NCBI GenBank assembly: GCA_045611905.1
Contig: JAZKYB010000214.1
Span: 1 to 33,134 of the forward strand
Reading direction: 5' to 3'
Source: Acutalibacteraceae bacterium
Lineage (GTDB): Bacteria; Bacillota; Clostridia; Oscillospirales; Acutalibacteraceae
DNA: 33,134 bases
Positions 975-26,323 of the stretch are shown piece by piece (within the stretch, counting starts at the first letter, position 1; every line of letters starts with the position of its first letter). The notes below the pieces were generated by a model that worked only from the letters and a program-made list of their open reading frames with translations, was not told where the DNA came from and made no database searches. The translations under genes were made by a program, and so were the position numbers.

Positions 975-1003
975 TTGAAATTAGTTGGTATAAATGCTAT
1001 ACT
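975..1003 (+). promoter_or_regulatory. Candidate sigma-A promoter of the polysaccharide locus
   Basis: TTGAAA (975-980), a 17-nt spacer, then TATACT (998-1003), about 48 nt upstream of the glf start. Confidence 0.4.
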
Positions 1004-1050
1004 TTATGGTGAATAATTGTGTAATACAAGTAATTACGGGAGAAGATTTT

Positions 1051-2151: not shown

Positions 2152-2164
2152 AAGGAGAATTAAA

Positions 2165-3229: not shown

Positions 3230-3230
3230 A

Positions 3231-4274: not shown

Positions 4275-4301
4275 ATTATTATAGTTAAAAGAGGTGGGAA
4301 T

Positions 4302-5405: not shown

Positions 5406-6899
5406 ATGGGAATAGTTAGCAAAGCTAAAAATATAACTGATGTTGTGTTAAACAAGCATAATTTTGCACTTGTTTACATTTCGTTTTTATTGCTTAGAAG
5501 TGTCTTCTTTTTGCAGGTTTATGTGGATGCAATATGTAAACTTTGTCTTTTTTGGGGCGCATTAATTGTTGTTTGTGATTTGTTTAAATATAAATTAAAC
5601 TTTTTCAAAACTGCAAATTCGTTTTTGCCGTTATTGTTGTGCGTGTCTTATGTTGTAAGTGTTGCCCTTAATTTTGATTATTCGTTATATGGTGGAATTA
5701 AAAATTTAATGTACATAGGCATTTATTTTTATGTGCTGCTTAATATACGAAGCGAAGAAAGCAAAGAAGATTTTTATAAATTTATAAAAAGAAACAATGA
5801 TGTTTTCATTGTTATAAATATGCTTATCGGCATTGCCTCTATAATCACCTTTTTGTTTTCTATAAAAACCATTTACACCGTCGGAACTGACGCTTATAAA
5901 GTTGGCTTTTGGTTTAACCGACTAAACGGTGTAAGCAATTCTAATATGGAAACCATATTGGGCTTTATATCGGTTGCTGTTACAATTATTAACTGGTATC
6001 TTCTTAAAGGGAAACCAAGTAAAATTAAAATTTTATATATATCAAATGTAATTGTTCAGGTTATTTATTATTCGCTTGCAGGTTCTCGTGCTGCCACAAT
6101 TTGTTATTTCGTGTTTGCGGCTATTGTCATTTTGTTTTGGGTTTTCCCTGTTGTTATGGCAAAGGTTAAAACCCTTAAAGCTGTGGCGTGCGTTGTCCTT
6201 TGCGTTGCTGTATTGGTGGCCGGCGAAATTGGTGTAGTAAAAGCAACCCAATTTGTTATGAAAAATTCTGCTGTTGCGATTACAAAGTTAAGTCAGTTAA
6301 GTGATGATAAAACTAAAGGTGACGGCAGTGATATAGAAGACGGCGAAGAAGATGAAGAAATTGATTTTGACCGTATAGAAGATTTTGAAAATGGTGATGT
6401 AACCAATAATCGTGCAGGTATGTGGTCGGCTGCATTTAAAATGATTAAGCAATACCCCGTATTTGGCATGGCATATTCATTGCAATTAGATGATGAAGGT
6501 AATATAAACCCAAAAATCGACGCTTCGGTGTTTAGTGAAAGTGAAATATCTGCCTTAAAAGCAGCAGGGTTTTATTTCCACAGCGGTTATGTGCAAATGA
6601 TTTTGTGCGGCGGCTTGGTGTTCTTTGCAATCTTTTTGCTGTTTACCATAAAAATTGCATTTGGTTTTATAAAATATTTATTCAGTCGTGGCAACTTTAA
6701 TTCTAAAGGTTATCCAATAGTGGTTGTGTTGGTTGCACTTATTGCAGCTTTGCTTGTTGATAATTTTGTAGAAGTGCATATAATGTTCAGCGGTCAGGAT
6801 GCGGCTGCAGCTGCTTTGTGGTATGTAATTGGTTGCGGTTTGTTTATAATTGACGGCAAAAATAAAACAGAGGTTAATGGGAATGAAGAAAAAATATGA
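5406..6899 (+). CDS. O-antigen polymerase/ligase-family (Wzy_C-type) polytopic membrane protein
   Basis: There are more than 10 hydrophobic segments and a large loop with NNRAGMWSAAFKMIKQYPVFGMAY (R-x-x-W...P-x-x-G-x-G pattern), as in Wzy/WaaL proteins. It sits among GT genes and wzx. Confidence 0.7.
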   Translation: MGIVSKAKNITDVVLNKHNFALVYISFLLLRSVFFLQVYVDAICKLCLFWGALIVVCDLFKYKLNFFKTANSFLPLLLCVSYVVSVALNFDYSLYGGIKNLMYIGIYFYVLLNIRSEESKEDFYKFIKRNNDVFIVINMLIGIASIITFLFSIKTIYTVGTDAYKVGFWFNRLNGVSNSNMETILGFISVAVTIINWYLLKGKPSKIKILYISNVIVQVIYYSLAGSRAATICYFVFAAIVILFWVFPVVMAKVKTLKAVACVVLCVAVLVAGEIGVVKATQFVMKNSAVAITKLSQLSDDKTKGDGSDIEDGEEDEEIDFDRIEDFENGDVTNNRAGMWSAAFKMIKQYPVFGMAYSLQLDDEGNINPKIDASVFSESEISALKAAGFYFHSGYVQMILCGGLVFFAIFLLFTIKIAFGFIKYLFSRGNFNSKGYPIVVVLVALIAALLVDNFVEVHIMFSGQDAAAAALWYVIGCGLFIIDGKNKTEVNGNEEKI

Positions 6900-8256
6900 T
6901 TTTTTAATTATGTATGAAGTTACCACAAGAGAAATGGAAAGCATAATTCTTCTTGGTAACGAACTCAAAAGCAGAGGATATACTGTTGATTATTTCAGTT
7001 TCGAGCACTGCAATTTGAAAAAATATCTTCAAAATAAGAAAATAATTAAAAAATATCACAATAATGTTGAAGTTGTTCTTATGCCATCGCTCTATCACGA
7101 TAAAGAAGTGTATTATCTTGTTAATTATGTGTGCGGCAACTGCAAAAACATAGTTAATTTGCGTTGGGAACAAACCTTTAATTATCAAAACGAAAAAAAT
7201 TATGACAGTTATCACTATCCCCATGGCGATGCTAAAAAGGCATATCATTTGTGTTGGGGCGAAAACAGTTATAACTGTATGCAAGAAGCAGGTGTGGATA
7301 AATCAAAGCTTCTTCTTTGCGGACCTGTTCATTTAGACTTTTTGCGACCACAGTTTAAAGATTATTATTACAGCCGTGAGGAATTATTTAAGCGTTATGA
7401 TATTCCCACCGATAAAAAGTGTGTGCTTTTTATTTCTTCATTTGCTATCGCCACAAGAACAAATCGACAGGTAAAACTTGAAGAAGAAAGCGCCGGTCAA
7501 GCATTGTTTGGCAATGCCGTTCAAAAGGAACAAATAACCCGAAACGCTTATCTTGAATGGATAGAAGCATTATTGCAAAAAGATACCTGCACATTTATAT
7601 ATCGCCCCCATCCCGTTGAAAATGTTTTGGGCGACTTGGACGAACTTTGCAAAAAATATAAAAACTTCCGTGTGATTTCTGACTTTTCGGTAAAGCAATG
7701 GATTTTGCGATGTGACGCACTTGTTACTTGGGTTAGCACCTCTATTGCAGAGGCGTTTTATGCCAACAAAACCTGCCTTATTGCTCGTCCCTTTAAAATT
7801 GAACAAAGTCAGGATATGTGCCTTTATAAAGATTCTAAGATTTTATATACCAAAGAAGAATTTGTAAATGCAGCCGTTAAAACCTCAGAATTAACGGTTT
7901 CACCATCAATAATGAAGGAATATTACGATTACGGCGAAACCCCGTCGTATATACGCCTTTGTAACGAGCTTGAAAAAATTATTGCTGATAAGGGCGATAA
8001 ATTCCCGTGGGACGAAGAAAAAATCAAAGAATTTAAGTCTCACAAAGCAAAGTATATTATTCAAAGCTTGCTTGTGGCGGTTTATATTCCAATACTTAAT
8101 TTGATGGGCAAAATAAGGGAAAAAACAAAAATTTCTTATGGTGCACTTAACGGCAGAGTGGATAGTTATAGAAAAGCACTTACCGTTAAACACATTAAAT
8201 TGGCAGATGAAAAAACAATAAATGACATTACCGAAAAAATAAAGAAATTTATGTAG
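6883..8256 (+). CDS. Uncharacterised surface-carbohydrate biosynthesis protein; candidate GT-B-like CMP-ulosonic-acid (sialyl/Kdo-type) transferase
   Basis: 458 aa, soluble. It contains FIYRPHPVE (an HP motif of the kind described in bacterial sialyl- and Kdo-transferases) and WVSTSIAEAF. It lies between wzy and wzx, near the nonulosonate activation and synthesis genes. ATG 6883 was chosen because AGAGG lies 9 nt upstream. It overlaps the wzy 3' end by 17 nt. Confidence 0.35.
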   Translation: MKKKYDFLIMYEVTTREMESIILLGNELKSRGYTVDYFSFEHCNLKKYLQNKKIIKKYHNNVEVVLMPSLYHDKEVYYLVNYVCGNCKNIVNLRWEQTFNYQNEKNYDSYHYPHGDAKKAYHLCWGENSYNCMQEAGVDKSKLLLCGPVHLDFLRPQFKDYYYSREELFKRYDIPTDKKCVLFISSFAIATRTNRQVKLEEESAGQALFGNAVQKEQITRNAYLEWIEALLQKDTCTFIYRPHPVENVLGDLDELCKKYKNFRVISDFSVKQWILRCDALVTWVSTSIAEAFYANKTCLIARPFKIEQSQDMCLYKDSKILYTKEEFVNAAVKTSELTVSPSIMKEYYDYGETPSYIRLCNELEKIIADKGDKFPWDEEKIKEFKSHKAKYIIQSLLVAVYIPILNLMGKIREKTKISYGALNGRVDSYRKALTVKHIKLADEKTINDITEKIKKFM

Positions 8257-8284
8257 GTATTAACGTAAGATAATGGTGATATAA

Positions 8285-9697
8285 GTGAACAAATTAAAAT
8301 ATTTGATGCAAAACACGGCGATTTTTGCAATAAGCCAGTTTACATCAAAAATAATGGTATTTTTGTTGTTGCCTTTATACACTTCGTATATGACAACAAC
8401 CGAATACGGCAGCGCAGACCTTGTTTTTTCAACGATAAGTCTGTTACTTCCCATATTTACAGTGCAAATAGCAAGTGCTGTAATGCGTTTTGCTATAGAA
8501 GATAAGGAAAAAGGCAACATTTACTATATTAAAGGGCTAAAGGTTACATTAATTGGCTTTGTGATTTTGCTTTGCCTTTGCCCTGTTTTTATTAAGCTTA
8601 ATCTTTTTGGCGAGCATTTGTATCTTTTCTACTTTTTATATATAACAAATGCAGTATACAATTTATTAAGCTATTACGCCCGTGCACTTGACAGATTAAA
8701 ACTTGTTGGTGTGGTGGGTGTAATAAATACAGCCGTTGTTGTTGGCGCAAACATAGTTTTGCTTATATTCTTTAAACTTGGCGTTTTTGGGTATCTTGTT
8801 TCTTACATTGCAGGATATTTCATCGGTTCGCTTGTTTTTGCCATAGCACTTAAAAAGGACATTAAAATTAAAGTTCACAAAAATAGCAAGGCCGAAATGA
8901 CCGAAATGACAAAATATTCTTTACCGCTTGTTCCAAACAGCATTTCTTGGTGGGGTGTTAGCACCGCCAACAAGTATATTGTTAACGGATATTTAAGCGA
9001 AAGTGTATTGGGACTATATTCGGTGGCGCTTAAAATACCCACAATTATAAATACAATTCAAAACATTTTGGCCGAAGCTCTTGTGTTGTCGGTGCTTAAA
9101 GAATATGACAGCGAAGAAAAAGATGAAAAATATTTCACACTTCTTTATAAAATGTATAATTTTTGCATTACATTTTTTACCGCAGGGGTAATACTTGGCA
9201 CAAAAATACTTGCAAAAATATTATTCGCTAACGATTTTTATCAGGGCTGGATTTATGTTCCGCTTTTGTGCATACCGTCGGTATGGGGCGCACTTGCGGG
9301 ATATTTGGGAACATTCTATTCCGCTTCGAAAAAGAACAATGGTATGTTTTTATCTACTGTAATCGGCGGTGTAATAACAATTGCATTTTCATTTGCTACC
9401 ATTAAAGACTTTGAAATCATGGGCGTTGTTTTTGGAAACATAATATCTTATTTTGTTATTTTCTTATATAGGTATATTGACGTCAAAAAATATGTTAAAC
9501 TGCAAATAAATATGGTTAAAGATGTAATTGGTTGGGCATTGCTTTTCGTGCAGTCGTTTGCAATTATGTATCTTGACAATATGCTTTTAGCATATTCAAT
9601 AAATATAGTTTGCGTATTGCTTGTAATGGCATTAAATAAAGAACTTATTGTTATGCTTATAAACGGTATAAAAAGCAAGCTGAAAGTAAGGGGATAA
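8285..9697 (+). CDS. wzx: Wzx-type oligosaccharide flippase (MOP/polysaccharide biosynthesis protein family)
   Basis: About 12-14 TM segments. The N-terminus NTAIFAISQFTSKIMVFLLLPLYTSYMTTTEYG is typical of PST-family flippases. GTG start at 8285; the alternative is ATG 8306. Confidence 0.75.
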   Translation: MNKLKYLMQNTAIFAISQFTSKIMVFLLLPLYTSYMTTTEYGSADLVFSTISLLLPIFTVQIASAVMRFAIEDKEKGNIYYIKGLKVTLIGFVILLCLCPVFIKLNLFGEHLYLFYFLYITNAVYNLLSYYARALDRLKLVGVVGVINTAVVVGANIVLLIFFKLGVFGYLVSYIAGYFIGSLVFAIALKKDIKIKVHKNSKAEMTEMTKYSLPLVPNSISWWGVSTANKYIVNGYLSESVLGLYSVALKIPTIINTIQNILAEALVLSVLKEYDSEEKDEKYFTLLYKMYNFCITFFTAGVILGTKILAKILFANDFYQGWIYVPLLCIPSVWGALAGYLGTFYSASKKNNGMFLSTVIGGVITIAFSFATIKDFEIMGVVFGNIISYFVIFLYRYIDVKKYVKLQINMVKDVIGWALLFVQSFAIMYLDNMLLAYSINIVCVLLVMALNKELIVMLINGIKSKLKVRG

Positions 9698-9698
9698 A

Positions 9699-10385
9699 AT
9701 GAAAAATATTGCTATAATTACCGCACGTGGCGGTTCGAAACGAATTCCAAAGAAAAATATAAAAGAATTTTGCGGCAAGCCAATTATTGCTTACTCTATC
9801 GAAGCAGCGTTAAACAGCGGCATATATGATGTGGTTATGGTTTCAACCGACAGCGAAGAAATTGCCGAAATTGCTAAAAAATATGGTGCACAGGTGCCAT
9901 TTTTAAGAAGTGAAAAAACAAGCAACGACTTTGCCACAACAAGGGATGTGCTTGATGAAGTAATAGATGAATATAAAAAGCGTGGACAAAGCTTTGATGT
10001 TATGACCTGCATTTACCCAACCGCACCGTTTGTTACTGCACAAAAGTTGAAAGATGCCGTAACACAGCTTTCTGAAAGTGATGCCGACTGGGCAATGCCT
10101 GTAACAGCATACAGTTTCCCGCCCCAACGTGCAATGGTTATAAGGGACGGCGGGCTTGAGTATCAATACCCCGAATACAAAAACACCCGCAGTCAAGACC
10201 TTGAACCTATTTATCACGATTGCGGACAGTTTTATGTTTATAAAATTGATGTATATAGCGGCGCAAAACAAGGTAGTGGTAAAGTTTTGCCGCTTATCAC
10301 CCCCGAAGAAGAAACACAGGATATTGACAACATTTCAGACTGGATTATTGCTGAAATTAAATACCAAAAATTTATAGAAAAATAA
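9699..10385 (+). CDS. Acylneuraminate/nonulosonate cytidylyltransferase (NeuA/PseF/LegF-like CMP-sugar synthetase)
   Basis: IAIITARGGSKRIPKKNIKEFCGKPIIAYSIEAAL...VSTDSEEIAEIAKKYGAQVPFLR matches the CTP_transf_3 signature. At 228 aa it is the short PseF/NeuA form. It starts 1 nt after the wzx stop. Confidence 0.8.
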   Translation: MKNIAIITARGGSKRIPKKNIKEFCGKPIIAYSIEAALNSGIYDVVMVSTDSEEIAEIAKKYGAQVPFLRSEKTSNDFATTRDVLDEVIDEYKKRGQSFDVMTCIYPTAPFVTAQKLKDAVTQLSESDADWAMPVTAYSFPPQRAMVIRDGGLEYQYPEYKNTRSQDLEPIYHDCGQFYVYKIDVYSGAKQGSGKVLPLITPEEETQDIDNISDWIIAEIKYQKFIEK

Positions 10386-10400
10386 GAACGGAGTGAAGAA

Positions 10401-11606
10401 ATGAACAAAACCGATTCAATAAAACGAAATTATAGAGCGGATAATTTTGTTCGATTTCTTCTTGACGGTAAAAGAGAAATTACCAATGAAGAGGTCGAGA
10501 TAAGAAAGAAAAATCTCGGCCTTTCTTCTTTAAATGGGCCTTTTGCGGTGGCAATGGTGGCACCCGATTATTCACCTATAAGGTTTGATGAAAAGGATGC
10601 ATTTTTTGCCGAATACGAGGGCTTTATTGAAGAATATTTCAGCAAAACAGAAGCTTTTGTGTATTCTTTTATGAATACATTAAATAATATTGTTGTGTTG
10701 TTTGCTTTTAATGGCAAAAATGTAACAGTTGACGATTTAAATAATATATTTTTAGATTTGCACAAAAAACTTTTAGAAAAATACTTTTTAGAAGTTTTTA
10801 TAGGAATAGGAAATATTGTCCATAATTATAAAGGGATAGCGGAATCTGCTTCTAATGCACAGGAAATGCTAAGCTTCAAATATCAGTATGCCGATAATGG
10901 TGTTGCAAATATTTCTACAATGGTTAGGTTTCAGTATAATGTTAGTTATGGCAACGGCATTGAATTTGACCGTGTTATAGGTTGCTTTAAGGACGGAAAC
11001 CTTGGCAAAATGGAGGTGCGCCTTAACGAGCTGGTAGAAAGTGTAAGAAACCGACCCAATGTTTCAAACACAAGTATAAGAAGAACCCTTGTAGAACTTG
11101 CGGTGCAAATTCTTCACCTTGCTTCAAACGCAGGTGTTGATGTTGATAATGTGCTTGGCGACACCGACCCTTATCGCTTTATATTAAAGCAAAATCATAC
11201 CGAAATAATTACCGAATGGATTATGAAAATAAGTTCAAATCTTCTTAATCTTATTCAAATTAGGCATGAAAGCGAAGAAAAAACAGTTATACAAAAAGCA
11301 AAGGTTTATATTGAAGAAAATTTGTCAAACATTGATTTGGGGCTTATGCCGGTCAGTGAAGCGGTGGGGCTTTCAAGCACCTATTGCAGCCAGTTGTTTA
11401 AAAAAGAAGTTGGCGTTGGCATTGCAAATTATATAACTGACAGGCGTATATTGCGTGCAAAGTCATTGCTTAAAGAAACAAATCTTTCGGCGGCGGAAAT
11501 TTCACGACAAATTGGGTTTGTTTCGGCGGGATATTTTGGTCAAGTGTTTAAAAAGGCCGAAGGTATAACCCCGCAAGAGTACAGAAGAAATATCATAAAA
11601 AATTAA
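10401..11606 (+). CDS. AraC-family transcriptional regulator, YesN-like but lacking a receiver domain
   Basis: The C-terminal double HTH reads VSEAVGLSSTYCSQLFKKEVG...ITDRRILRAKSLLKETNLSAAEISRQIGFVSAGYFGQVFKKAEGITPQEYRR. The N-terminal 290 aa or so resemble the linker/sensor region of YesN-type regulators. No phospho-acceptor REC domain is present. Confidence 0.8.
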   Translation: MNKTDSIKRNYRADNFVRFLLDGKREITNEEVEIRKKNLGLSSLNGPFAVAMVAPDYSPIRFDEKDAFFAEYEGFIEEYFSKTEAFVYSFMNTLNNIVVLFAFNGKNVTVDDLNNIFLDLHKKLLEKYFLEVFIGIGNIVHNYKGIAESASNAQEMLSFKYQYADNGVANISTMVRFQYNVSYGNGIEFDRVIGCFKDGNLGKMEVRLNELVESVRNRPNVSNTSIRRTLVELAVQILHLASNAGVDVDNVLGDTDPYRFILKQNHTEIITEWIMKISSNLLNLIQIRHESEEKTVIQKAKVYIEENLSNIDLGLMPVSEAVGLSSTYCSQLFKKEVGVGIANYITDRRILRAKSLLKETNLSAAEISRQIGFVSAGYFGQVFKKAEGITPQEYRRNIIKN

Positions 11607-11691
11607 CATTATCGCTAAAAGTTGATATTGTGTTAAATGCTTTAAAAACATAAAATATTATAGCACGATGTAAAAAAGGAGGATGTATCCC

Positions 11692-12735
11692 TTGAACAGT
11701 ATGTGGGAAAAGGTTACCGAAGGCCAGGTTTACACCATTGCCGAAATGTCAGGTAATCACGCCGGAAATTTAGAAAATGCATTGGCAATTGTGCGTGCCG
11801 CCAAAGAGGCCGGTGCCGACTGTCTTAAAATTCAAACATACACGGCCGACACTATCACACTTGACAGTGATAACGAATGTTTTTATATTCACGGCGGCAC
11901 ATGGGATGGCTATCGCCTTTACCAGCTTTATCAAGAAGCAGGAACACCGCTTGAATGGAATAGTATAATTAAAGAAGAATGCGAAAAGGTTGGCATTGAT
12001 TTTCTTTCTACCCCGTTTGATAAAACTGCGGTTGACTTGCTTGAAGATATAGGTACCGAAATTTATAAAATCGCATCCCCTGAACTTATAGATATTCCGC
12101 TTATTGAATATGTGGCATCTAAAGGTAAGCCAATGCTTATTTCTTGCGGCATGGGTAGCGAGGATGAAATTAAAGAAGCGGTTGAAACCTGCTTAAAACA
12201 GGGTAATGATAAAATCATACTTTTAAAATGTTGCAGCGACTATCCTGCACAGTTTGATGAAATGAACCTTAATGCAATTCCTGATATGCAAAAGAAATAT
12301 AATGTTAAGGTTGGCCTTTCAGACCATTCTATGGGAAGTTTAGCATCGGTTGTGGCGGTGTCACTTGGTGCTTGTGTAATAGAAAAACACATGTGCTTAA
12401 GCCGAGATATAGAAAACCCCGACGCTTCGTTTTCTATGGAACCTGCCGAATTTAAAAAACTTGTAGACGACGTTAAAAATGCTCGTCTAACACTTGGTAC
12501 TGCAAATTATAAATTATCTGAAGGAGAACAACGCAGTAAGCTTTTCAGAAAGTCAATTTTCGTGGCCGAAGACATTAAAGCGGGTCAAGTGCTTACCGAA
12601 AAAAATATTCGTGTTGTACGCCCAAGCAACGGCTTACATCCGCGATATTATAATGAAATTTTAGGCAAAAAAACAACTAAAAACATTTCTAAAGGTACTC
12701 CGTTTGAGTGGAGTATGATAGAAGAAAAGGAGTAA
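11692..12735 (+). CDS. Nonulosonic acid synthase (NeuB/PseI/LegI family, with C-terminal SAF domain)
   Basis: YTIAEMSGNHAGNLENALAIVRAAKEAGADCLKIQTY...YKIASPE...GLSDHS...IEKH, plus the SAF domain FVAEDIKAGQVLTEKNIRVVRP. The block GTWDGYRLYQLYQEAGTPLEW looks PseI-like. TTG 11692 is preferred because GGAGG lies 9 nt upstream. The track ATG at 11683 abuts the SD with zero spacing. Confidence 0.8.
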   Translation: MNSMWEKVTEGQVYTIAEMSGNHAGNLENALAIVRAAKEAGADCLKIQTYTADTITLDSDNECFYIHGGTWDGYRLYQLYQEAGTPLEWNSIIKEECEKVGIDFLSTPFDKTAVDLLEDIGTEIYKIASPELIDIPLIEYVASKGKPMLISCGMGSEDEIKEAVETCLKQGNDKIILLKCCSDYPAQFDEMNLNAIPDMQKKYNVKVGLSDHSMGSLASVVAVSLGACVIEKHMCLSRDIENPDASFSMEPAEFKKLVDDVKNARLTLGTANYKLSEGEQRSKLFRKSIFVAEDIKAGQVLTEKNIRVVRPSNGLHPRYYNEILGKKTTKNISKGTPFEWSMIEEKE

Positions 12736-12740
12736 ATGTT

Positions 12741-14240
12741 ATGAAAAAAATTATTGCTTTAGTTCTTGCGCTTTGCTTGTGTATCGCAGTATTTGCAGGT
12801 TGCACCGGCAACACCAACACCGGCGTTCTCACTGTTGGTCTTGAAGCAGATATCGACAACTTTGATCCCTTCACAAACCAACAAAACCCCTTTGTAAGAT
12901 TTATTGGCTTTAACTGTTATGAAGCACTTTTCCATTATGATGAAAATATGGAACTTGTAATGGACCTTGCCACTTCTTATGAAAAGGTAAATGAAACAAC
13001 CTATACCTTTAAACTTAGAGAAAATGTAACCTTCCACAATGGTGAAGCATTTACTGCCGATGATGTAATTTATACCATTAACACCATTAAAGATAAGGAT
13101 GCGGGCGCTTGGAAATACAGCCAATTCAGCAATGTTGCTGAAATGAAGGCGTCAGATAAGTATACACTTGAAGTTAAACTTTCTGCACCACAAGCCGGCT
13201 TTATTGACAACCTCGCTTACACTTCTATCGTGTCAAAAAGCACTACCCCCGCATCACTTACCACAACTCCAATTGGCACAGGTGCGTTCAAGTTTGTTAG
13301 CTGGACACCTAATGACAGCATTAAATTTGAAAAATACGATGGTTATTGGGAAGCTGACAAGGTTGAACTTAACGAACTTGTTTTCAAAATCATACCAGAC
13401 CCAACTGTTGCGGTAACCAACCTTAAATCTAATACTATTCAGTTCCTTGGAAGTATTGATATTGAAACTGCAAATACAGTAGCAAACGATAACAAGCTTA
13501 CCCTTATGGAATCAAAGTCTGCAAGCACAGTTTATGAAGTTGAAATCGGCCGTCATAAAAACCCTGCCCTTGCCGACCCTGATGTTGTCAAAGCTATGTT
13601 CCTTGCGTTAGATAAAGAAACTGTTGCAGAGCAAGTGTTTGGCGGAAAAGCATCCGCTTCTAAGAGCCCATTCCCGTCGGTTGCTAAGTATTATTCAGAA
13701 GTTGATACTGACGGATATGATATTGAAAAAGCAAAGCAATTACTTGCCACCACCAAATATAAAGATGGTTTCGAATTTGAAGTTTATGTAATCAACGGTG
13801 ATTCTGCTTCTCAACAAACTATGATTATTTGGCAGTCAGCACTTAAAAAGCTTGGCATTGAAATGAAAATCAATACCTGCGAAGTTTCGGTATGGCTTGA
13901 TGCATACCTCAGCCGTAACTATGATATGATTGCTAACTATTATTCAATGGTTGGTACCGACCCATCAACCTATTGCTCGGTTATTATGACAGCACTTGCT
14001 GATTATCAAACTAAAGACCTTCCTGAGCTTAACAATCTTATTAACAGCAGTGCCAATGGCTCGGATGAAGCTGTAAGAGCTGCAAATTACAAGCAAATTC
14101 AAGAAATGATAGTTAAATATAAACCTGTTGCATCTTATGTGGAATGTGCAAACCTTAACGGTGCTGTTAAGGACCTTAGCGGTGTGGTTGTAAACGCTAT
14201 GGGTCACGGTTTCTTTAAGTATGCCAGCTTTACAAAATAA
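12741..14240 (+). CDS. ABC transporter substrate-binding lipoprotein, SBP family 5 (Opp/Dpp/Nik/SatA type)
   Basis: Signal peptide with lipobox MKKIIALVLALCLCIAVFAGC, about 500 aa, with family-5 blocks (LTVGLEADIDNFDP, FKLRENVTFHNGE.FTADDV). The RBS AAGGAG lies inside the end of the synthase gene, leaving a 5-nt gap. Confidence 0.8.
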   Translation: MKKIIALVLALCLCIAVFAGCTGNTNTGVLTVGLEADIDNFDPFTNQQNPFVRFIGFNCYEALFHYDENMELVMDLATSYEKVNETTYTFKLRENVTFHNGEAFTADDVIYTINTIKDKDAGAWKYSQFSNVAEMKASDKYTLEVKLSAPQAGFIDNLAYTSIVSKSTTPASLTTTPIGTGAFKFVSWTPNDSIKFEKYDGYWEADKVELNELVFKIIPDPTVAVTNLKSNTIQFLGSIDIETANTVANDNKLTLMESKSASTVYEVEIGRHKNPALADPDVVKAMFLALDKETVAEQVFGGKASASKSPFPSVAKYYSEVDTDGYDIEKAKQLLATTKYKDGFEFEVYVINGDSASQQTMIIWQSALKKLGIEMKINTCEVSVWLDAYLSRNYDMIANYYSMVGTDPSTYCSVIMTALADYQTKDLPELNNLINSSANGSDEAVRAANYKQIQEMIVKYKPVASYVECANLNGAVKDLSGVVVNAMGHGFFKYASFTK

Positions 14241-14260
14241 TTTAAAAAATTAAACTTATG

Positions 14261-14285
14261 CTGCCTGGGTAAAAAACTCGGGCAG
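14261..14285 (+). terminator. Intra-operon hairpin after the SBP gene (partial terminator or mRNA stabiliser)
   Basis: CTGCCTGGG-TAAAAAA-CTCGGGCAG forms a 9-bp stem with two G:U pairs. Only a weak, interrupted U-tract follows (CTTTGCTGACTTTT). Confidence 0.3.
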
Positions 14286-14314
14286 CTTTGCTGACTTTTA
14301 AAGGAGATAATTTA

Positions 14315-15280
14315 ATGCGCTTAACATCGACATTAAAATATATTGGTCGCCGCCTTTTGATGTCATTGGCCGTGCTTTTTATTGTTACGGTTATGATTTT
14401 CACCGTGGTGCGCCTTTCACCCGGTGATCCGGTGCAAAGCAGAATAGGTCCGCATGGCGATTATTCCCCCGAAAACATTGCCCGCATTGAAGCTGAATTG
14501 GGTCTTGATAAGCCCTTGATTGTACAATACGGAATATGGGTTAAAGACTGTGCTCAGGGTAATCTTGGTGTGTCGTTAAGAAATGGCGCCCCCATTACTG
14601 AAATTGTTATGGAAAAGCTTATGGTAAGTGTTGAACTTATAACAGTTGCCATAATTTTTGCTGTTATTTTGGCAATTCCGTTGGGAATTATATCGGGCAT
14701 AAAATCGGGCAGTCTTATTGACCAAATTGCAAGTGTTTTTTCAACCGGTTTTCTTGCCATGCCCAGTTTTTGCACGGGGCTTTTGCTTATAGTTGTGCTT
14801 TCGGTAAAGCTTAACATATTGCCCGCAAACGGCTATGTTCCTTTTTCGCAAAATCCAATGATGAACATTACATTTCTTATAATGCCTGCATTAACTTTGG
14901 GGCTTTATTTGATAGCGGTGCTTACCCGTTTTGTAAGAAGCGAAACGATGGAGGTTGTATCTTCTAATTATGTTCGTACCGCAAGGGCAAAGGGTATGCC
15001 AAGTTCGATAGTTAATAAAAGATATATACTTAAAAACATCACTACCACCCTTATAACAGTTGTTGGTATAGAATTTGCAACCTTGCTTGGTGGTACCGTT
15101 ATTGTTGAACAGCTTTTTGGTTGGTCAGGTCTTGGTTGGTATATATGCCAATCGGTTGCCAACCGTGACTATCCTGCTATACAAGGTTCGGTTCTCGTAA
15201 TTGCGGTGGCATTTGTAATCATCAATTTGCTTATGGATATTCTTTATGTTATCCTTGACCCTCGAATAGAGTTGGAGTAG
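14315..15280 (+). CDS. ABC transporter permease (OppB/DppB type)
   Basis: LKYIGRRLLMSLAVLFIVTVMIFTVVRLSPGDP N-terminus, the EAA-like loop YVRTARAKGM, and 6 TM segments. AAGGAG lies 8 nt upstream of ATG 14315. Confidence 0.88.
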   Translation: MRLTSTLKYIGRRLLMSLAVLFIVTVMIFTVVRLSPGDPVQSRIGPHGDYSPENIARIEAELGLDKPLIVQYGIWVKDCAQGNLGVSLRNGAPITEIVMEKLMVSVELITVAIIFAVILAIPLGIISGIKSGSLIDQIASVFSTGFLAMPSFCTGLLLIVVLSVKLNILPANGYVPFSQNPMMNITFLIMPALTLGLYLIAVLTRFVRSETMEVVSSNYVRTARAKGMPSSIVNKRYILKNITTTLITVVGIEFATLLGGTVIVEQLFGWSGLGWYICQSVANRDYPAIQGSVLVIAVAFVIINLLMDILYVILDPRIELE

Positions 15281-15284
15281 ATAT

Positions 15285-16109
15285 ATGTTAAAGAAGAAAA
15301 GTAAAATAAATTTTGTTACAATATTTGCGCTGATAATACTTTTTATAGTTTTGCTTATGGTTGTTTTCCCATCACTTTTCACTTCTTACGACCCGTTAGA
15401 AGTGGATATGGGCAAAAAACTTTTATCCCCAAGCGGCGAACATATCTTGGGCACTGACGAATATGGTAGAGATATTTTTTGCCGTATAGTTTACGGCGCA
15501 AGAAGTTCGGTTTCGGTTGGTTTGGGCACCGCATTGCTTTCGGCACTTTTGGGTGTTCCGCTTGGCCTTATCGCAGGTTATTACGGTGGCACAATTGATA
15601 ATATCATTATGCGTATAATGGATGCGTTTCAGTCATTCCCGTCAATACTTCTGGCCATTCTTCTAAGCACCATATTCGAAACATCGGTATTTTCGCTTAT
15701 ACTAACCATATCGGCGGTTAGTTTCCCGCGGTTTGCTAAATTAGTGCGAAGTAATGTGCTTACCATTAAAAAGCAAGATTATGTTTTAGCGGCAAGGGTT
15801 GCCGGTGTTAGCAAACCGTATATTTTGTTTAACACCATACTTAGAAACTGTATGTCAGTTGTGGTTGTACAGTTTTCAATGCTTACTGCAACCGCAATTC
15901 TTATTGAAGCAGGTATGAGCTTTTTGGGCCTTGGTCTTCAACCACCCGCACCGGCGTGGGGCTCTATGCTTTTTTATGCAAATAAGTATATAAATTCAAA
16001 TGTGTCATATATCTTAAGCCCAACTTTCACCATATTCCTTGTGGTGTTAAGCATCAATTTGTTGGGCGACGCGTTAAGGGATTTACTTGACCCTAAAAAG
16101 AAGAACTGA
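15285..16109 (+). CDS. ABC transporter permease (OppC/DppC type)
   Basis: HILGTDEYGRDIFCRIVYGARSS and YVLAARVAGVSK are characteristic of OppC/DppC permeases. Confidence 0.88.
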   Translation: MLKKKSKINFVTIFALIILFIVLLMVVFPSLFTSYDPLEVDMGKKLLSPSGEHILGTDEYGRDIFCRIVYGARSSVSVGLGTALLSALLGVPLGLIAGYYGGTIDNIIMRIMDAFQSFPSILLAILLSTIFETSVFSLILTISAVSFPRFAKLVRSNVLTIKKQDYVLAARVAGVSKPYILFNTILRNCMSVVVVQFSMLTATAILIEAGMSFLGLGLQPPAPAWGSMLFYANKYINSNVSYILSPTFTIFLVVLSINLLGDALRDLLDPKKKN

Positions 16110-16118
16110 GAGAACAAT

Positions 16119-17087
16119 ATGAATATACTTGAAATTAACAACTTAACAACCAAACTTGCAACTGACAGGGGCGTTATAACTGCAGTTGATAATGTAAGTT
16201 TACAACTTAAAAAGGGTGAAATTTTAGGTCTTGTTGGCGAATCAGGTTGCGGTAAAAGTATGACGGCAATGTCAATTATGCAGTTGCTTTCTAAAAAACA
16301 GTCAAAAATAGAGGGTGAAATTCTTTTTGACGGCAAAGATTTATTAAATATGACCGAAAAAGAATTAAACGAAGTACGCGGTAATAAAATTGCTATGATT
16401 TTCCAAGATGTTATGACTTCGCTTAACCCATTGCTTACCATAGGTCAACAGATAATGGAGCCCTTAATGGTGCATAAGCGTATGACTAAAGTTGAAGCCA
16501 GAAAGGAAGCAATTTCGCTTTTAGAGGCAGTCGGTATTCCAATGCCCGAAAAAAGAGTTGACGAATATCCAAGTTCGTTTTCAGGCGGTATGCGCCAGCG
16601 TGTTATGATAGCAATTGCGCTTTCCTGCACACCCGAAATTCTTATTGCGGATGAGCCAACAACCGCACTCGATGTTACAATTCAAGCACAAATACTTGAA
16701 CTTATGAAAAAAATCCGTGAAAAATACGGCACTTCTATAATAATGATTTCGCACGACCTTGGTGTAATTTCTGAAATGTGTGACCGTGCAGTTGTTATGT
16801 ACTGCGGTAATATTGTAGAAGAAGGCAGCATAAAGCAAATTTTTGAAAATCCCACCCACCCTTACACAAAGGGGCTTTTAAAAAGCATTCCCGTGCTTGA
16901 TAAAAAGGTAGATGAGCTTTACAGTATACCCGGTGTGGTGCCTCCGCTTTACAACTTGCCAAACGGATGCAAATTTGCTGACAGGTGCGCTTACAGGTGT
17001 GATGATTGTGTAAAGCAGTTGCCAAAACTTAAAAAAGTTGATGACGGTCATTATGTAAGATGTATAGGAGGGGAAAGTGTTGAATAA
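16119..17087 (+). CDS. ABC transporter ATP-binding protein (OppD/DppD type)
   Basis: Walker A GESGCGKS, signature FSGGMRQR, Walker B ILIADEPTTALD, and C-terminal oligo_HPY extension HPYTKGLL...CKFADRCAYRCDDC. Confidence 0.9.
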   Translation: MNILEINNLTTKLATDRGVITAVDNVSLQLKKGEILGLVGESGCGKSMTAMSIMQLLSKKQSKIEGEILFDGKDLLNMTEKELNEVRGNKIAMIFQDVMTSLNPLLTIGQQIMEPLMVHKRMTKVEARKEAISLLEAVGIPMPEKRVDEYPSSFSGGMRQRVMIAIALSCTPEILIADEPTTALDVTIQAQILELMKKIREKYGTSIIMISHDLGVISEMCDRAVVMYCGNIVEEGSIKQIFENPTHPYTKGLLKSIPVLDKKVDELYSIPGVVPPLYNLPNGCKFADRCAYRCDDCVKQLPKLKKVDDGHYVRCIGGESVE

Positions 17088-18074: not shown

Positions 18075-19022
18075 CTATTTAATTGTTATTTTATAAATTT
18101 CACGGCTATTTAAATTAAAATCGTGCATTGAAATTTTTGTAACGCTTTGGTTTTCATAGGTTGTGTAATAATAATTGCCGTTTTTGGTGTCGCAACAGCT
18201 GGTATAACGGGTATATTCAAATTCGCCCCGTTCGGTCAAGACACATCCTTTTGGCATTGCAACCGATGAAAGTATGTGAAAAAATTGGATAACCGCTTCA
18301 TTACTTTTAAGGTTTTTTTGTGAATTTTCTTTCACAAACACAGTTTTAACAAAGCGTGAGGGGGAAGAAAAATCGCCCGGTAAACCCACGGCGCCAAGCC
18401 CTAAAGAAAAATTGTGTGGGTTAAAGTTTTTAATAAGTTTATTTTCGGCATCGCCGTTGTGAAGTGCGGCATAATTTTGCAAATTAAGCAAGTGCCAGTC
18501 GAAAGTTGGGTTATTTGTAAGCACACCCACAGGGTTTTCATAAACCTTAATCCCAGTTTTAAGTGGTTCGACCGTTATTGATTTTTCATTGTCACAAATA
18601 AAAAAATGTAATGGTGACAAGGGCAAATTATCGCTGAAATTAATGTTGACCAAGTTTATATTTTTTAAAAGTTTTACAGCCGAGTCAACATTTTCGCAGG
18701 TGCTTAAAATATATGGTATAAATTCAAACGGTGTGATATTATTCACACCGTTTTGTTTGTTGTTATAGTGGGCGTTTTTGGGGAAATTAAGCCCCGCCAC
18801 ACTTAGCCCTTTTTCATTTGTCGCTTCATAATAAAGCGGAACGCCGTCTATAACGGTTGCCATACCAATAATGGCAAAGTGTGTGGCAATATCATGGACA
18901 CACCGCATTTTAAATAAAAAATTTCGCGGTGTAATTACAACACTTTCGTTATACGAACAGTCTAAATCTAAATTGCGGCCAAAAAAATGGTTTTCGGCGT
19001 TAAAGCTAATTGCGGTGCACAT
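18075..19022 (-). CDS. Choloylglycine (bile salt) hydrolase family Ntn-hydrolase
   Basis: MCTAISFNAENHFFGRNLDLDCSYNESVVITPRNF has the nucleophile Cys2 and the FGRN(L/M)D block, closely paralleling known conjugated bile acid hydrolases. 315 aa. Confidence 0.85.
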   Translation of the reverse strand: MCTAISFNAENHFFGRNLDLDCSYNESVVITPRNFLFKMRCVHDIATHFAIIGMATVIDGVPLYYEATNEKGLSVAGLNFPKNAHYNNKQNGVNNITPFEFIPYILSTCENVDSAVKLLKNINLVNINFSDNLPLSPLHFFICDNEKSITVEPLKTGIKVYENPVGVLTNNPTFDWHLLNLQNYAALHNGDAENKLIKNFNPHNFSLGLGAVGLPGDFSSPSRFVKTVFVKENSQKNLKSNEAVIQFFHILSSVAMPKGCVLTERGEFEYTRYTSCCDTKNGNYYYTTYENQSVTKISMHDFNLNSREIYKITIK

Positions 19023-23495: not shown

Positions 23496-24608
23496 TTAAA
23501 ATATTGCATTCCAAACAAGTGCAAAAAGGGTAAGCACGGCCAAAAAGCCAAAGTTAAAGGCCGAAAATGTAAGTATGTAATGTTTGAATTTTTTGGGGTT
23601 GTGGCTTGCATATTCACGGAAGGTTATAAGACTTGCAAGCGAAGCAATAAGCGTGCCTGCACCGCCAATGTTTACACCAACAAGTAAATCGGCATAGTTT
23701 TCGGTAAACTGCGAAAGCAACACGGCCGACGGCACATTGCTTATAATTTGGCAAGAAAAAACCGAAAACAGCAAGGTGCTTTTTGATAAAAGATAAGAAA
23801 AAGCGTCCCGCACGATATCGATTCGTGCCATATTTCCCGCGAAAATAAAGAAAAACACAAAGGTTAAAAGAAGCGGATAATCCACCGCCTTTAAGGCGGT
23901 TTTGTCCATAAAAATTAAAAATAACGGAACAACAATAAGCCCCGTCCAATAGGGAATCCACCGAAAAACAATTAAAATGCTGTAAGCAAATAAAATTAAA
24001 TATGTAAGTGTTTTTACAGGTGGCAAATTTACCTGTTGCCTTTTTAAAACAACTTTTTCGGGTTTTATAAAGGTTAGGCAGCAAATTGTTATTAAAATTA
24101 TTGCAACAACAAAGCAAGGTGCCATTATACCCATAAATTCGGCAGTATCAATTTTGAAAAAAGAATATAAATAAAGGTTTTGCGGGTTGCCAAAAGGGGT
24201 TAGCATACCGCCCAAGTTTGCGGCAATGTTTTGCAAAATAAAGGTAACTTCCATATATTTTTCCATCTTGGTGGTAGAAAGCACATAATAACCAAGTGGT
24301 AAAAATGTAAGAAGCGCCATATCGTTTGCAATAAGCATTGAACCGATAAAGGTTATATAAACAAGCATTAAAACGCAGGTTCTGATATTTCCGCCCGCTT
24401 CAACAATTTTGCGCGCCAAAATATAAAAAAAGCGTATGTTTTTTAAAGCGCAAACCACCGCCAAAACACAAAACAGGCAGGTCAGCGTTTTAAAGTCGAA
24501 ATACCCAACATAATTTTTGTCGGGTGGCACAAATAATGCGGTAATGATAGCGGCTATAAGCGCCACAGTCATTACAATGTTGTTTTTAAAAAATCTTAAA
24601 ACTGTCAT
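23496..24608 (-). CDS. Anion permease of the ArsB/NhaD/CitMHS (YbiR-like) superfamily
   Basis: 370 aa with about 10-11 TM segments. The overall pattern resembles YbiR/citrate-transporter-like permeases. The start codon directly abuts the stop of the upstream peptidase gene (24609). Confidence 0.55.
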   Translation of the reverse strand: MTVLRFFKNNIVMTVALIAAIITALFVPPDKNYVGYFDFKTLTCLFCVLAVVCALKNIRFFYILARKIVEAGGNIRTCVLMLVYITFIGSMLIANDMALLTFLPLGYYVLSTTKMEKYMEVTFILQNIAANLGGMLTPFGNPQNLYLYSFFKIDTAEFMGIMAPCFVVAIILITICCLTFIKPEKVVLKRQQVNLPPVKTLTYLILFAYSILIVFRWIPYWTGLIVVPLFLIFMDKTALKAVDYPLLLTFVFFFIFAGNMARIDIVRDAFSYLLSKSTLLFSVFSCQIISNVPSAVLLSQFTENYADLLVGVNIGGAGTLIASLASLITFREYASHNPKKFKHYILTFSAFNFGFLAVLTLFALVWNAIF

Positions 24609-25094
24609 TTATCTTGTCTTTTCGTTAATAATACGTTTTATAAAATTAACACCCTTGGTTTTTAAAAGGCGAAATGGGTATAAAAACCGCCAAAGCTTAA
24701 CATAACAAAGATATAAAAAGTCATTTTTGTCAAATTCTTTTCCTTTGCGCTGAAAGGCGGTTGCAACGGCAATTATCTGCTTATCGGTTATGCCTTTTTC
24801 AACATAAACCTGTGCATCGCCAAGCATAATGTATTCGCCATTTTTTACCTTAAAAATGCGGTGCAAAACATAAGTACCATTATCCCTTAAATATAAAACC
24901 ACGTCATCTTTTTTTAACTTTTGGGTTATGGGGGAAAGCACGGCCTTGTCACGCTTATCTTTTAAAAATGGGTGCATGCTGTTGCCGGTAATGGTTATGA
25001 TAACCTGTTTTTCCTTGGAAATAAAATCAATAATTAAGGGGCCTATTTCCTGCATTGAAAACGGCAACGCTTCATATTTTTTGTTTATTCGCAT
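24609..25094 (-). CDS. S24/S26-family serine peptidase, SipW/ER-type (Ser/His) signature, with no obvious N-terminal membrane anchor
   Basis: ITGNSMHPFL is the G-x-S-M-x-P nucleophile box. It is followed by DDVVLYL...YVLHRIFKV...MLGDAQ, where H-R-I stands in the position of the K-R-V general-base box, as in SipW/Sec11-type enzymes. It overlaps the PqqD gene by 10 nt. Confidence 0.55.
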   Translation of the reverse strand: MRINKKYEALPFSMQEIGPLIIDFISKEKQVIITITGNSMHPFLKDKRDKAVLSPITQKLKKDDVVLYLRDNGTYVLHRIFKVKNGEYIMLGDAQVYVEKGITDKQIIAVATAFQRKGKEFDKNDFLYLCYVKLWRFLYPFRLLKTKGVNFIKRIINEKTR

Positions 25095-25351
25095 AAAAAA
25101 TCTTTTTCCCTTAAATTTTGTAAAAATGCATCAATGTCGGAAAGAGCACTTTCTTCATCGGTTTCATATTCGTTTAAAACCGCATTTAAAAGTGTTTGCT
25201 TGTCGGTATCGTTTTGCATTAAATCCCACAAAAATGCGGCTGTTTCGTTAAGCACAATAACACCCGAAAAATCAACAGCGTTCATACCAACGGGAATAGC
25301 AACAATTTTATCTGCAATTTCGGTTTTTATAAATCCGTCTTTAATTTTCAT
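25085..25351 (-). CDS. PqqD-family protein (RiPP recognition element-type peptide chaperone)
   Basis: 88 aa. VAIPVG...VIVLNETAAFLWDLMQNDTDKQTLLNAVLNEYETDEESALSDIDAFLQNLREKDFL matches the PqqD winged-helix pattern. AAGGAGAA lies 7 nt upstream. There is an ATGA overlap with the upstream gene. Confidence 0.75.
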   Translation of the reverse strand: MKIKDGFIKTEIADKIVAIPVGMNAVDFSGVIVLNETAAFLWDLMQNDTDKQTLLNAVLNEYETDEESALSDIDAFLQNLREKDFLCE

Positions 25352-26229
25352 AAAAGTTCTCCTTTAAAAATACCGTTATATGAAACTTCAACCGCACTAT
25401 CGCTTATGTCACATTTAAGGTCATAAAATGGGGTGTTAATATTATAAAGCGTTTTAATAAAATCCACCGTTTTGGCACCAATGGTGTTATCATAAAACGG
25501 GTTTGGAAGTTGGCGTGAAAGATTTAAAACCGCATTTAAAACATTGGTTTTTGAAATTTCGTTTTGCTCGCCCCGATTTAAAAACACAACGGCTGTTAAT
25601 GGGCATTTAACATTGTTGTTAAGATGGGTTTTACCGCTCCACGGGGTGCCATAAACAAACGGCTTTCCGTTTTCAATTTTTATGGCGGGCTTATCGTCGT
25701 TTATAATCATAACCCTGTCGCCAAAGCGCTTTTGCCACAAACTTGTGTGGGTAGATTTGCCCGTGCCCGAATCGGCCGAAAAAATAACGGCTTGGTTATC
25801 AATTGCAATGCTTGAGCCATGAAGCACAGTACCCCCAAGTACGGTAAGTCGGTTTGCAAACATAAAGCCGGTGTACATATATTCGTAATTAGTGGGGCCA
25901 AGGCCGTTAATATTAAGAGTTTTTAAAATTTTTATATTAACATCGCTATAATCGGCGGTGTATGTAATCATAAAAACAATTTCGTTTGATGTTGCGGGTT
26001 TTAAATATCGGCAAAAACGACCATCAGGCAGTTTTAAAAGCCAAACCTTGTTTTGTTGAAAGCAAACTTCGCCCTGTGGTGCGGTTATGCTGTCAACCAC
26101 TTCGGTTTCTATTTTTAAATCGGGATTTTCTGTAAATTCACATTCATAATTTTTAAAGCGTGATGAAAAAAATGCTTCATCAGCGCTTTTTATATTTATA
26201 TATAAACCTGCAACACAAATTGTACGCAT
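25348..26229 (-). CDS. HPr-kinase-C-terminal-domain-like P-loop kinase with an uncharacterised N-terminal domain
   Basis: LHGSSIAIDNQAVIFSADSGTGKSTHTSLW parallels the HprK block HG-x-x-V-x-x-x-G-x-G-V-L-I-x-G-D-S-G-I-G-K-S-E-T. Residues 1 to about 135 have no pattern I recognise. First gene of the operon. Confidence 0.65.
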   Translation of the reverse strand: MRTICVAGLYINIKSADEAFFSSRFKNYECEFTENPDLKIETEVVDSITAPQGEVCFQQNKVWLLKLPDGRFCRYLKPATSNEIVFMITYTADYSDVNIKILKTLNINGLGPTNYEYMYTGFMFANRLTVLGGTVLHGSSIAIDNQAVIFSADSGTGKSTHTSLWQKRFGDRVMIINDDKPAIKIENGKPFVYGTPWSGKTHLNNNVKCPLTAVVFLNRGEQNEISKTNVLNAVLNLSRQLPNPFYDNTIGAKTVDFIKTLYNINTPFYDLKCDISDSAVEVSYNGIFKGELL

Positions 26230-26253
26230 TTTTTCTCACGCCCCTTTTTAAAA

Positions 26254-26282
26254 AGTATATCACAGCTTTGTTTTTAGTGCAA
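26254..26282 (-). promoter_or_regulatory. Candidate sigma-A promoter (extended -10) of the kinase/PqqD/peptidase/permease operon
   Basis: The minus strand reads TTGCAC (26277-26282), a 17-nt spacer ending in TGA, then TATACT (26254-26259). ATG 26229 lies about 25 nt downstream. Confidence 0.5.
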
Positions 26283-26290
26283 CCAATAAT

Positions 26291-26323
26291 TAAAAAAGCG
26301 ATATAGCATTTGCTATATCGCTT
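26291..26323 (-). terminator. Rho-independent terminator after the S1-domain gene
   Basis: AAGCGATATAGCA-TT-TGCTATATCGCTT (26296-26323) forms a 13-bp stem. On the minus strand it is followed by a TTTTAATTATT tail, the two preceding T residues being part of the stem. It isolates the downstream operon transcriptionally. Confidence 0.75.

Follow-up and report, generated by a model that had tools for sequence, protein, structure and literature searches.

A kinase, RRE and peptidase gene trio in a gut Clostridia contig and its relation to linear polyphosphorylated peptide pathways

It was not until 2026 that gene clusters for 'linear polyphosphorylated peptides' (LPPs) were described, and the description is limited to Bacilli (Popov et al., Nat Commun 2026; PMC13381572). 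In these hosts, among them Paenibacillus alginolyticus, the genes have the order lppA-K-B-S-D-N and code for a precursor (LppA), an HprK-like kinase (LppK), a discrete RRE (RiPP recognition element, RiPP denoting a ribosomally synthesized, post-translationally modified peptide; LppB), a SipW-like signal peptidase I (LppS), an MsbA-like exporter (LppD) and an NTP (nucleoside triphosphate) transferase (LppN). The clusters have no cyclase and are often located within capsule loci. In a B. subtilis host LppK adds up to four phosphates to Ser3 of the core, and LppS, through S29, H68 and D93, cuts the leader after T-1, for which LppB is required; lppN was silent in this host. The precursors reach 200 aa, the clusters display a patchy history of gain and loss, and they often coexist with lasso peptide clusters in one genome, the SipW-like peptidase being a hallmark of the LPP and not of the lasso type (PMC13381572). 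Here we analysed a stretch of 33,134 nt from an Acutalibacteraceae bacterium of an uncultured gut Clostridia lineage (contig JAZKYB010000214.1, assembly GCA_045611905.1; hereafter the window), in which four contiguous open reading frames (ORFs) on the minus strand code for a kinase-like protein, a PqqD protein, a peptidase and a permease, in this order. With a probability of about 0.7 the first three (26229-24609) constitute the K-B-S maturation core of an LPP-type RiPP pathway, with the substrate encoded in trans or the trio maintained as a selected orphan, and with the permease as a bystander. Gene order, homology, conserved residues, co-conservation, a deletion and selection were observed; the chemistry would be that of the homologous system, and action in trans is inferred.

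Kinase, RRE and peptidase of the trio

The ends of the four ORFs overlap or abut. The tight coupling noted in the initial annotation follows from the coordinates: kinase and PqqD genes share 4 nt (ATGA, 25348-25351), PqqD and peptidase genes share 10 nt (25085-25094), and peptidase and permease genes meet with a zero gap at 24608/24609, which in the sequence reads TAA-ATG.

The kinase had been annotated as HprK-like. This holds at the level of the fold, as the protein had no match to PF07475 (Hpr_kinase_C) in a Pfam scan (E<=0.01). The AlphaFold2 model (predicted local distance difference test score, pLDDT, 91.7) was matched by Foldseek to ATP-dependent phosphoenolpyruvate carboxykinase (PEPCK; E 1e-7, template-modelling score 0.54) and to the catalytic domain of HprK/P (E 2e-6). 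A fold search was needed because neither a kinase profile nor a peptidase profile retrieved anything significant from the sequences of the PDB. Three motifs are invariant, the P-loop GxGKST, NDDKPA and GTPWSGK. The homologues fill more than 5,000 clusters, nearly all from Clostridia metagenomes, and are labelled as Pfam PF27840 'ScmC'. The same family contains the LppK orthologue of Paenibacillus frigoriresistens, to which the window kinase aligned in BLASTP (E 2e-9) along 122 aa of its P-loop domain, with 24% identity. The P. frigoriresistens locus (L085 in our census) has a complete set in the order A-K-B-S-D-N, i.e. a precursor of 72 aa, a kinase of the ScmC family, PqqD, signal peptidase I, an ABC exporter and NTP_transf_5. 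Directly after it, at 11488-16456, lies a paeninodin-type lasso cluster consisting of an Asn_synthase cyclase, a 44-aa precursor, an Hpr_kinase_C kinase, PqqD, a Transglut_core3 B2 protein and NTP_transf_5, in accordance with the co-localisation that Popov et al. reported.

The initial annotation had also pointed to HPr-rel-A. Here the resemblance is distant, with scores far under the curated cut-offs. HPr-rel-A (TIGR04352, TIGR04353, TIGR04355) and SynChlorMet (ScmC/ScmD) share with the window the pairing of a distant kinase of the HprK/PEPCK fold with a PqqD-family protein; unlike them, the window has neither radical S-adenosylmethionine (SAM) partners nor a second kinase. Against NCBIfam the kinase scored 15.8 bits for HprK_rel_A (TIGR04352; E 6e-3, cut-off 200) and the PqqD protein 17.8 bits for PqqD_rel_X (TIGR04353; cut-off 35), and membership of HPr-rel-A was rejected. 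SynChlorMet was dismissed as well: the scores were 21 bits for ScmC (E 1.7e-4, cut-off 125) and 16.8 for ScmD (cut-off 100), radical SAM proteins ScmE/F were absent, and only the broad Pfam family 'ScmC' is shared. Literature searches on ScmC, SynChlorMet and NTP_transf_5/PF14907 yielded nothing relevant to a K-B-S system, and the RRE-Finder paper and a 2025 survey of RREs do not mention this architecture.

The assignment of the second protein as PqqD/RRE was confirmed by PF05402 (E 5.7e-16, Pfam scan). A profile of the RRE family retrieved from the PDB the lasso proteins TbiB1 (1.4e-9) and PbaB1 (7e-7) and LppB (9x8z; 5e-6); BLASTP against LppB gave 32% identity over 47 aa (E 1e-5). N35 is invariant and D72 is conserved in at least 90% of the family. 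They align with N33 and D70 of LppB, the leader-binding residues which fix the Pro and the Tyr of the leader.

The peptidase remained below all curated sequence cut-offs (PF00717, 19.8 bits; TIGR02228, 26.9 vs 51.85; NF046067, 19.2 vs 190). The proposal of an S26/SipW-like enzyme is nevertheless supported by conserved boxes and by the fold. An alignment of 22 homologues displayed invariant TGNSMxP, VLHR and GD boxes and Glu99, the pattern of SipW/ER-type enzymes, and the AlphaFold2 model (pLDDT 88) was matched by Foldseek to SipA, SpsB, LexA and UmuD. Thus, the GxSMxP, HR and GD boxes and the signal-peptidase/LexA beta-barrel fold are shared with SipW/archaeal-ER-type signal peptidase I (S26B); different are the sub-cut-off scores, the location in a RiPP-type operon and the RRE-dependence of the homologue LppS. 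By position S39, H78 and E99 correspond to S29, H68 and D93 of LppS, the acid being Glu and not Asp. BLASTP against LppS gave 27% identity (E 4e-11).

Closer matches were found in cluster 4 of the sequence similarity network of Popov et al. (Desulfosporosinus, Dehalobacter, Anaerocolumna), which was listed there as RRE-linked and left unanalysed (PMC13381572). Window peptidase and RRE are 35-42% identical to its members (E 1e-21 to 1e-28; peptidases alone, E 1e-24 to 1e-28) and are nearer to them than to the Bacilli LPP proteins. As judged by these sequence comparisons, the window trio is a reduced variant in a cluster-4-type sister group of the Bacilli LPP systems. Both types occur together in Paenibacillus contaminans, which carries the locus L017 of our census and the cluster-1 entry of the paper. 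Common to the characterised LPP systems and the window are the K-B-S core proteins, their order, the overlap of the genes, the PF27840 kinase, the equivalents of the LppB and LppS residues named above and the lack of a lasso cyclase. Relatives of the window have in addition YxxP-leader precursors, an MsbA-like exporter and NTP_transf_5. In contrast, lppA, lppD and lppN are lacking in the window, and the host belongs to the gut Clostridia whereas the characterised systems are from Bacilli.

By analogy with LPP maturation, the PqqD-fold RRE would bind the YxxP motif of a precursor leader and present the precursor to the PEPCK/HprK-fold kinase, which would add one or more phosphates to a Ser located 2-3 residues past the boundary of leader and core. 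In the next step the RRE would present the precursor to the peptidase, a SipW-like enzyme of the Ser-His-acid type, and the leader may be cut off behind a small residue in position -1 (T, A or S). The product of the window pathway is presumably linear. The initial annotation had envisaged a module that recognises, phosphorylates and clips a peptide. This core idea anticipated a system which has since been demonstrated: kinase, RRE and peptidase are co-conserved, and the homologous lppK-lppB-lppS were shown to act in this manner by experiment (PMC13381572). The export through the permease, which was part of that proposal, did not stand.

Related loci and their precursors

The census covered 84 related loci, of which 80 were drawn from species-representative genomes and the other 4 were obtained by contig look-up; occurrence of PqqD, peptidase and permease was counted with the window proteins as queries. 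Of these loci, 76 had PqqD and 73 had the peptidase, almost always in the order kinase, PqqD, peptidase and with overlapping genes. According to a clustering of neighbours, about 43 loci had an MsbA-like exporter with ABC_membrane and ABC_tran domains immediately behind the peptidase, and an NTP_transf_5 protein was found in 17. The layout was restricted to the trio in 26 of the 84 loci, i.e. exporter, transferase and a recognisable precursor were all lacking, and a further 24 had the trio and an ABC exporter and no recognisable precursor. All seven closest relatives of the window (L004-L010; kinase identity 50-80%) belong to the trio-only group. The surroundings of the trio varied and were often made up of housekeeping genes. 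The family abounds in Clostridia: at least 587 stretches from species-representative genomes encode a relative.

Asked whether a conserved small ORF travels with kinase and peptidase, the census disclosed a precursor family in 22 loci, 5' of the kinase and on the same strand; it was not found near the window. Its members follow the pattern MKKxYEKPx[ILV]x[IV]xx[FY]Exx[DN][IT]x[T/A/S]xS, also written more tightly as MKKxYEKPxIEIxxFExEDI[T/A/S]xS, then a short acidic tail rich in Asp, Glu and Gly, and thus carry the YxxPxL motif which is bound by lasso-type B1 RREs. The precursor family was present in 13 of the 17 loci with NTP_transf_5. The Clostridia sister family possesses its own precursors with short acidic cores, yet often consists of the bare trio and no substrate gene nearby. 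The acidic cores, with D/E at positions 7-9, had led to the idea that the kinase might activate carboxylates as a substitute for a lasso cyclase. This was set aside on the evidence from the characterised system, in which LppK phosphorylates Ser and the products are linear.

Several individual loci deserve mention. In L072 an S24/S26-like peptidase is fused to NTP_transf_5 (564 aa, 7485-9179), a parallel to the B2::nucleotidyltransferase fusions of Firmicute lasso clusters, and two tandem precursor ORFs are located upstream (5382-5695). In Clostridium tagluense (L001, 12193-12351) the first approximately 20 codons of a precursor are joined to the start of the kinase in a chimeric ORF (MKKEYEEPTIE running into NDMNNVTIANLNIE...). 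It looks like a scar of duplication or insertion; the cluster is split into A-K-N, genes for surface proteins and A'K'-B-S-D. In Faecalimonas umbilicata (L036, 19759-19950) the YxxP of a precursor-like ORF is without its Pro (MKERYEALELNIVKIPVEDTIMMSGIDNNGDVGDWGEEDLGF). This ORF is located 9 kb downstream of a K-B-S-N cluster and beside a second NTP_transf_5-like gene, a hint that precursors may be located away from their cluster.

About half of the kinases appear short (approximately 235 aa), and their alignment with the window kinase (293 aa) starts only at about residue 90-116 of the latter; such loci were noted among L035, L036, L042-L055 and L058-L084. A kinase without adjacent RRE or peptidase was seen in seven loci (L042, L043, L045, L055, L068, L080, L083).

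Recurrent neighbours of another kind were also observed. Large LRR_5/Flg_new (InlB B-repeat) proteins and proteins with SLH domains recur immediately 5' of precursor-bearing clusters; surface-protein neighbours of this kind were noted in L001, L011, L017, L030, L048, L051-L053, L073 and L084. Elsewhere the flanks of the module hold CpsB/CpsD-like capsule genes. In nine Acutalibacteraceae and Ruminococcaceae loci (L012, L015, L016, L021, L023, L024, L027, L028, L037) the trio adjoins terminase-, portal- or capsid-like phage genes, recognised from N-terminal sequences only and situated approximately 0.1-6 kb upstream of the kinase. Six of them share a conserved basic ORF of 43-47 aa (..PPIYDRRRLEALV..HRLRVYL..AGVKAPR) 80-240 nt before the kinase. 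Anti-phage defence or a phage origin was considered and abandoned, since PADLOC and PHROGs gave noise only.

Permease junction, selection and rival explanations

The permease was correctly recognised as ArsB/NhaD-type: PF03600 (CitMHS) matched with E 1.2e-24 and 87.4 bits, above the gathering score of 31.9. Its role as the exporter of the product could not be upheld. The order of the trio is near-universal, yet the exact quartet does not recur, as a permease was encountered in a single one of the 84 related loci (L005); co-conservation of the four genes thus fails for the fourth and stands for the first three. L005 is the closest relative found, with a kinase 80% identical and DNA about 86-87% identical to the window. 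In blastn the window aligned with L005 in two collinear blocks which omit 833 bp of L005. This segment contains a hairpin terminator just past the peptidase stop, a gene for a 214-aa protein on the opposite strand and the permease's own upstream region. L004, which ranks next among the relatives that share the neighbouring genes, has the gene for the 214-aa protein and lacks the permease. Therefore, the abutment of permease and peptidase is a lineage-specific, recent deletion junction (about 24609-24625) and not a sign of a module. The permease is an unrelated housekeeping neighbour without a conserved functional tie to the trio; it is now probably co-transcribed, its translation depending on coupling to the trio operon. 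For the window this corrects the idea of an anion permease as exporter, which stems from the deletion and not from a real feature of the system.

These data bear directly on the explanation that the four genes form a self-contained module in which the anion permease exports a phosphorylated and clipped peptide. The genes are indeed contiguous and co-oriented, no terminator separates them, the TAA-ATG abutment is tight and the permease itself is under purifying selection (dN/dS, the ratio of non-synonymous to synonymous substitution rates, 0.08). However, the rarity of the permease, the terminator, opposite-strand gene and upstream region that intervene in L005, the persistence of trio and neighbours without permease in L004 and the use of an ABC transporter as the family exporter leave this explanation very little probability.

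A different question is whether the trio is still functional. Ratios of dN/dS against L005 and L004 were 0.21 and 0.26 for the kinase, 0.12 and 0.26 for the RRE and 0.11 and 0.19 for the peptidase; for comparison, values were 0.04 for the S1-domain gene and 0.10 for cysK. The compared proteins of L005 and L004 are 64-91% identical to those of the window. The trio is clearly under purifying selection, though looser than S1 and cysK, and is therefore not a dead remnant. This makes it improbable that the trio is a decaying, non-functional leftover of a full A-K-B-S-D-N cluster, for which the loss of three of the six canonical genes, the deletion scar at the 3' end of the peptidase gene and the patchy gain and loss of LPP-type clusters would speak. 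Decay is at odds not only with these dN/dS values of 0.11-0.26, but also with three intact ORFs, invariant catalytic and binding residues and the maintenance of the trio-only layout in L004-L010 and in the trio-only group at large.

A link to lasso peptides was examined in two forms. Phosphorylated lasso clusters (paeninodin, pseudomycoidin, Bsf; A-C-K-B1-B2-D(-N)) resemble the trio and its relatives in a PqqD/B1 RRE for a YxxPxL leader, in an RRE-aided kinase of the HprK superfamily that phosphorylates a precursor Ser, and in NTP_transf_5 and an ABC exporter at related loci. In contrast, the window has neither a macrolactam cyclase nor, as far as seen, a B2 cysteine protease; a SipW-like serine peptidase is present instead. 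In agreement with the initial annotation, a motif search of the window for a lasso cyclase was negative, and Pfam scans disclosed no radical SAM enzyme among its genes. An SGGxDS PP-loop (Asn-synthase-type) cyclase was absent from the window and from the vicinity of all 84 modules, where matches to the PP-loop motif were only GuaA, TilS, MnmA and a single AsnB at a distance of about 7 kb. The homologous loci are accordingly not standard lasso sets, and the trio does not represent a lasso cluster in decay. No transglutaminase-type B2 was among the recurrent neighbours, whose clusters were ABC exporter, NTP_transf_5, SLH and LRR; a dedicated B2 model was not used. Conceivably, B1 and kinase could still serve as a tailoring set for a paeninodin-type lasso cluster located elsewhere in the genome. 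Kinases of this superfamily do tailor lasso peptides, the RRE profile matches TbiB1 and PbaB1, and LPP and lasso clusters often share a genome. Yet with no Asn-synthase-type cyclase beside any module, no recurrent B2 (with the reservation just made), a peptidase which is the hallmark of LPP and not of lasso systems, and a kinase that aligned better with LppK than with the lasso kinase adjoining in L085 (E 1e-5), the likelihood of such a tailoring role is close to nil.

The assignment as an LPP-type K-B-S core has to face several adverse points as well. Identity of the window proteins to LppK, LppB and LppS is no more than 24-32%. In the precursors of the subgroup the boundary reads [T/A/S]-x-S and the cores are short and acidic, whereas characterised LPP precursors have T-x-x-S and long cores rich in Gly, Asn and Pro; phosphorylation and cleavage sites for the window subgroup are extrapolated. 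The RRE profile scored lasso B1 proteins slightly above LppB, though in a similar range. Partner genes are missing as well. A precursor was not detected in the 33-kb window nor in about 10 kb (less at contig ends) around the trios of L004-L010. The search used a hidden Markov model (HMM) built from 14 precursors and iterated to 24, run on six-frame stop-to-stop segments, and regular expressions ([YFW]xxPx[hydrophobic]x[hydrophobic]; Px9Fx[T/A]; [YW]xxP...[FY]E). Neither the Clostridia-type motif nor the Bacilli LPP motif (YxxP...F-E-T-x-x-S) was present in these regions, and the earlier statement that no precursor-like small ORF is near the operon is borne out by the HMM and regular-expression scans of the whole window. 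Likewise, a dedicated ABC exporter does not adjoin the trio, as had been stated: an MsbA-like transporter is absent beside it and the only ABC genes of the window belong to an Opp/Dpp-type importer at 12.7-18 kb. NTP_transf_5 was absent beside the trio, in L004-L010 and among the Pfam-scanned ORFs of the window; the pyr ORFs at 27.4-31.7 kb were not directly scanned and correspond to pyrimidine-biosynthesis genes annotated in L004. With precursor, exporter and transferase missing from the window, the trio acts in trans or is an orphan kept by selection; most likely, it would act on a peptide encoded elsewhere in the genome.

The same gaps would be explained by a use outside of RiPP biosynthesis: the target that the trio phosphorylates and clips would be a protein of the cell, or else a peptide that stays inside it. 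The variable, often housekeeping surroundings and the length of up to 200 aa reported for LPP precursors are compatible with this, as are the 26 trio-only loci and the 24 with an ABC exporter and no recognisable precursor. On the other hand, the RRE has retained the residues that bind a YxxP leader, all identifiable substrates are small peptides of leader and core, and a conserved protein bearing such a motif was not found among the neighbours. We consider a non-RiPP use improbable. A related speculation, that stand-alone K-B-S trios, kept by purifying selection in many gut Clostridia, carry out a regulatory, RRE-guided phosphorylation and clipping of an unlinked peptide or protein inside the cell instead of making a secreted natural product, has a small chance of being correct. 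If instead the trio works in trans as an LPP-type maturation core, mining rules that demand a linked precursor and exporter would miss many systems of this sort in bacteria of gut and rumen.

Feature coordinates and neighbouring genes

The locations of trio, permease and transcription signals are compiled in Table 1. The strong terminator between the S1-domain gene and the block was confirmed (12 stem pairs, then TTTT), so that the block is insulated on this side. A promoter of its own, also proposed initially, is plausible: the motif is present in the sequence, yet it was missed by a consensus scan because the -35 hexamer matches at just 3 of 6 positions. As had been noted, no comparable terminator follows right after the permease gene. 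The next strong one on the minus strand is at 21885-21854, 3' of ppa, and therefore read-through into cysK-ppa is possible.

Table 1. Position of the trio, the permease gene and associated signals in the window.
Feature	Position	Strand	Basis
LppK-like peptide kinase, 293 aa	25348-26229	-	PEPCK/HprK-fold P-loop enzyme, PF27840 'ScmC' family
LppB-like discrete RRE (PqqD fold), 88 aa	25085-25351	-	PF05402
LppS-like SipW/archaeal-type signal-peptidase-I homologue (leader peptidase), 161 aa	24609-25094	-	catalytic boxes, BLASTP, fold
CitMHS/ArsB-NhaD-type permease, 370 aa	23496-24608	-	PF03600
Intrinsic terminator of the upstream S1-domain gene	26296-26323	-	12-pair stem, 5 G-C pairs, then TTTTAATTAT
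Putative promoter, TTGCAC-17 nt-TGaTATACT	26254-26282	-	sequence read only
Deletion junction, 833 bp of L005 absent	24609-24625	-	blastn vs L005 and L004

The flanks of the block are housekeeping genes: a pyr operon with the S1-domain gene on one side, cysK with ppa on the opposite side. An exopolysaccharide/capsule locus (994-12735), about 11 kb from the trio, contains genes for UDP-galactopyranose mutase, two family-2 and one family-1 glycosyltransferases (GT2, GT1), a Wzy-like polymerase, a flippase, a cytidylyltransferase and NeuB. A gene of the choloylglycine (bile-salt) hydrolase family is located at 18075-19022 on the minus strand (PF02275, E 1e-99). It fits a gut-dwelling host, and so do the rumen and colon sources of the metagenome-assembled genomes of the closest relatives.

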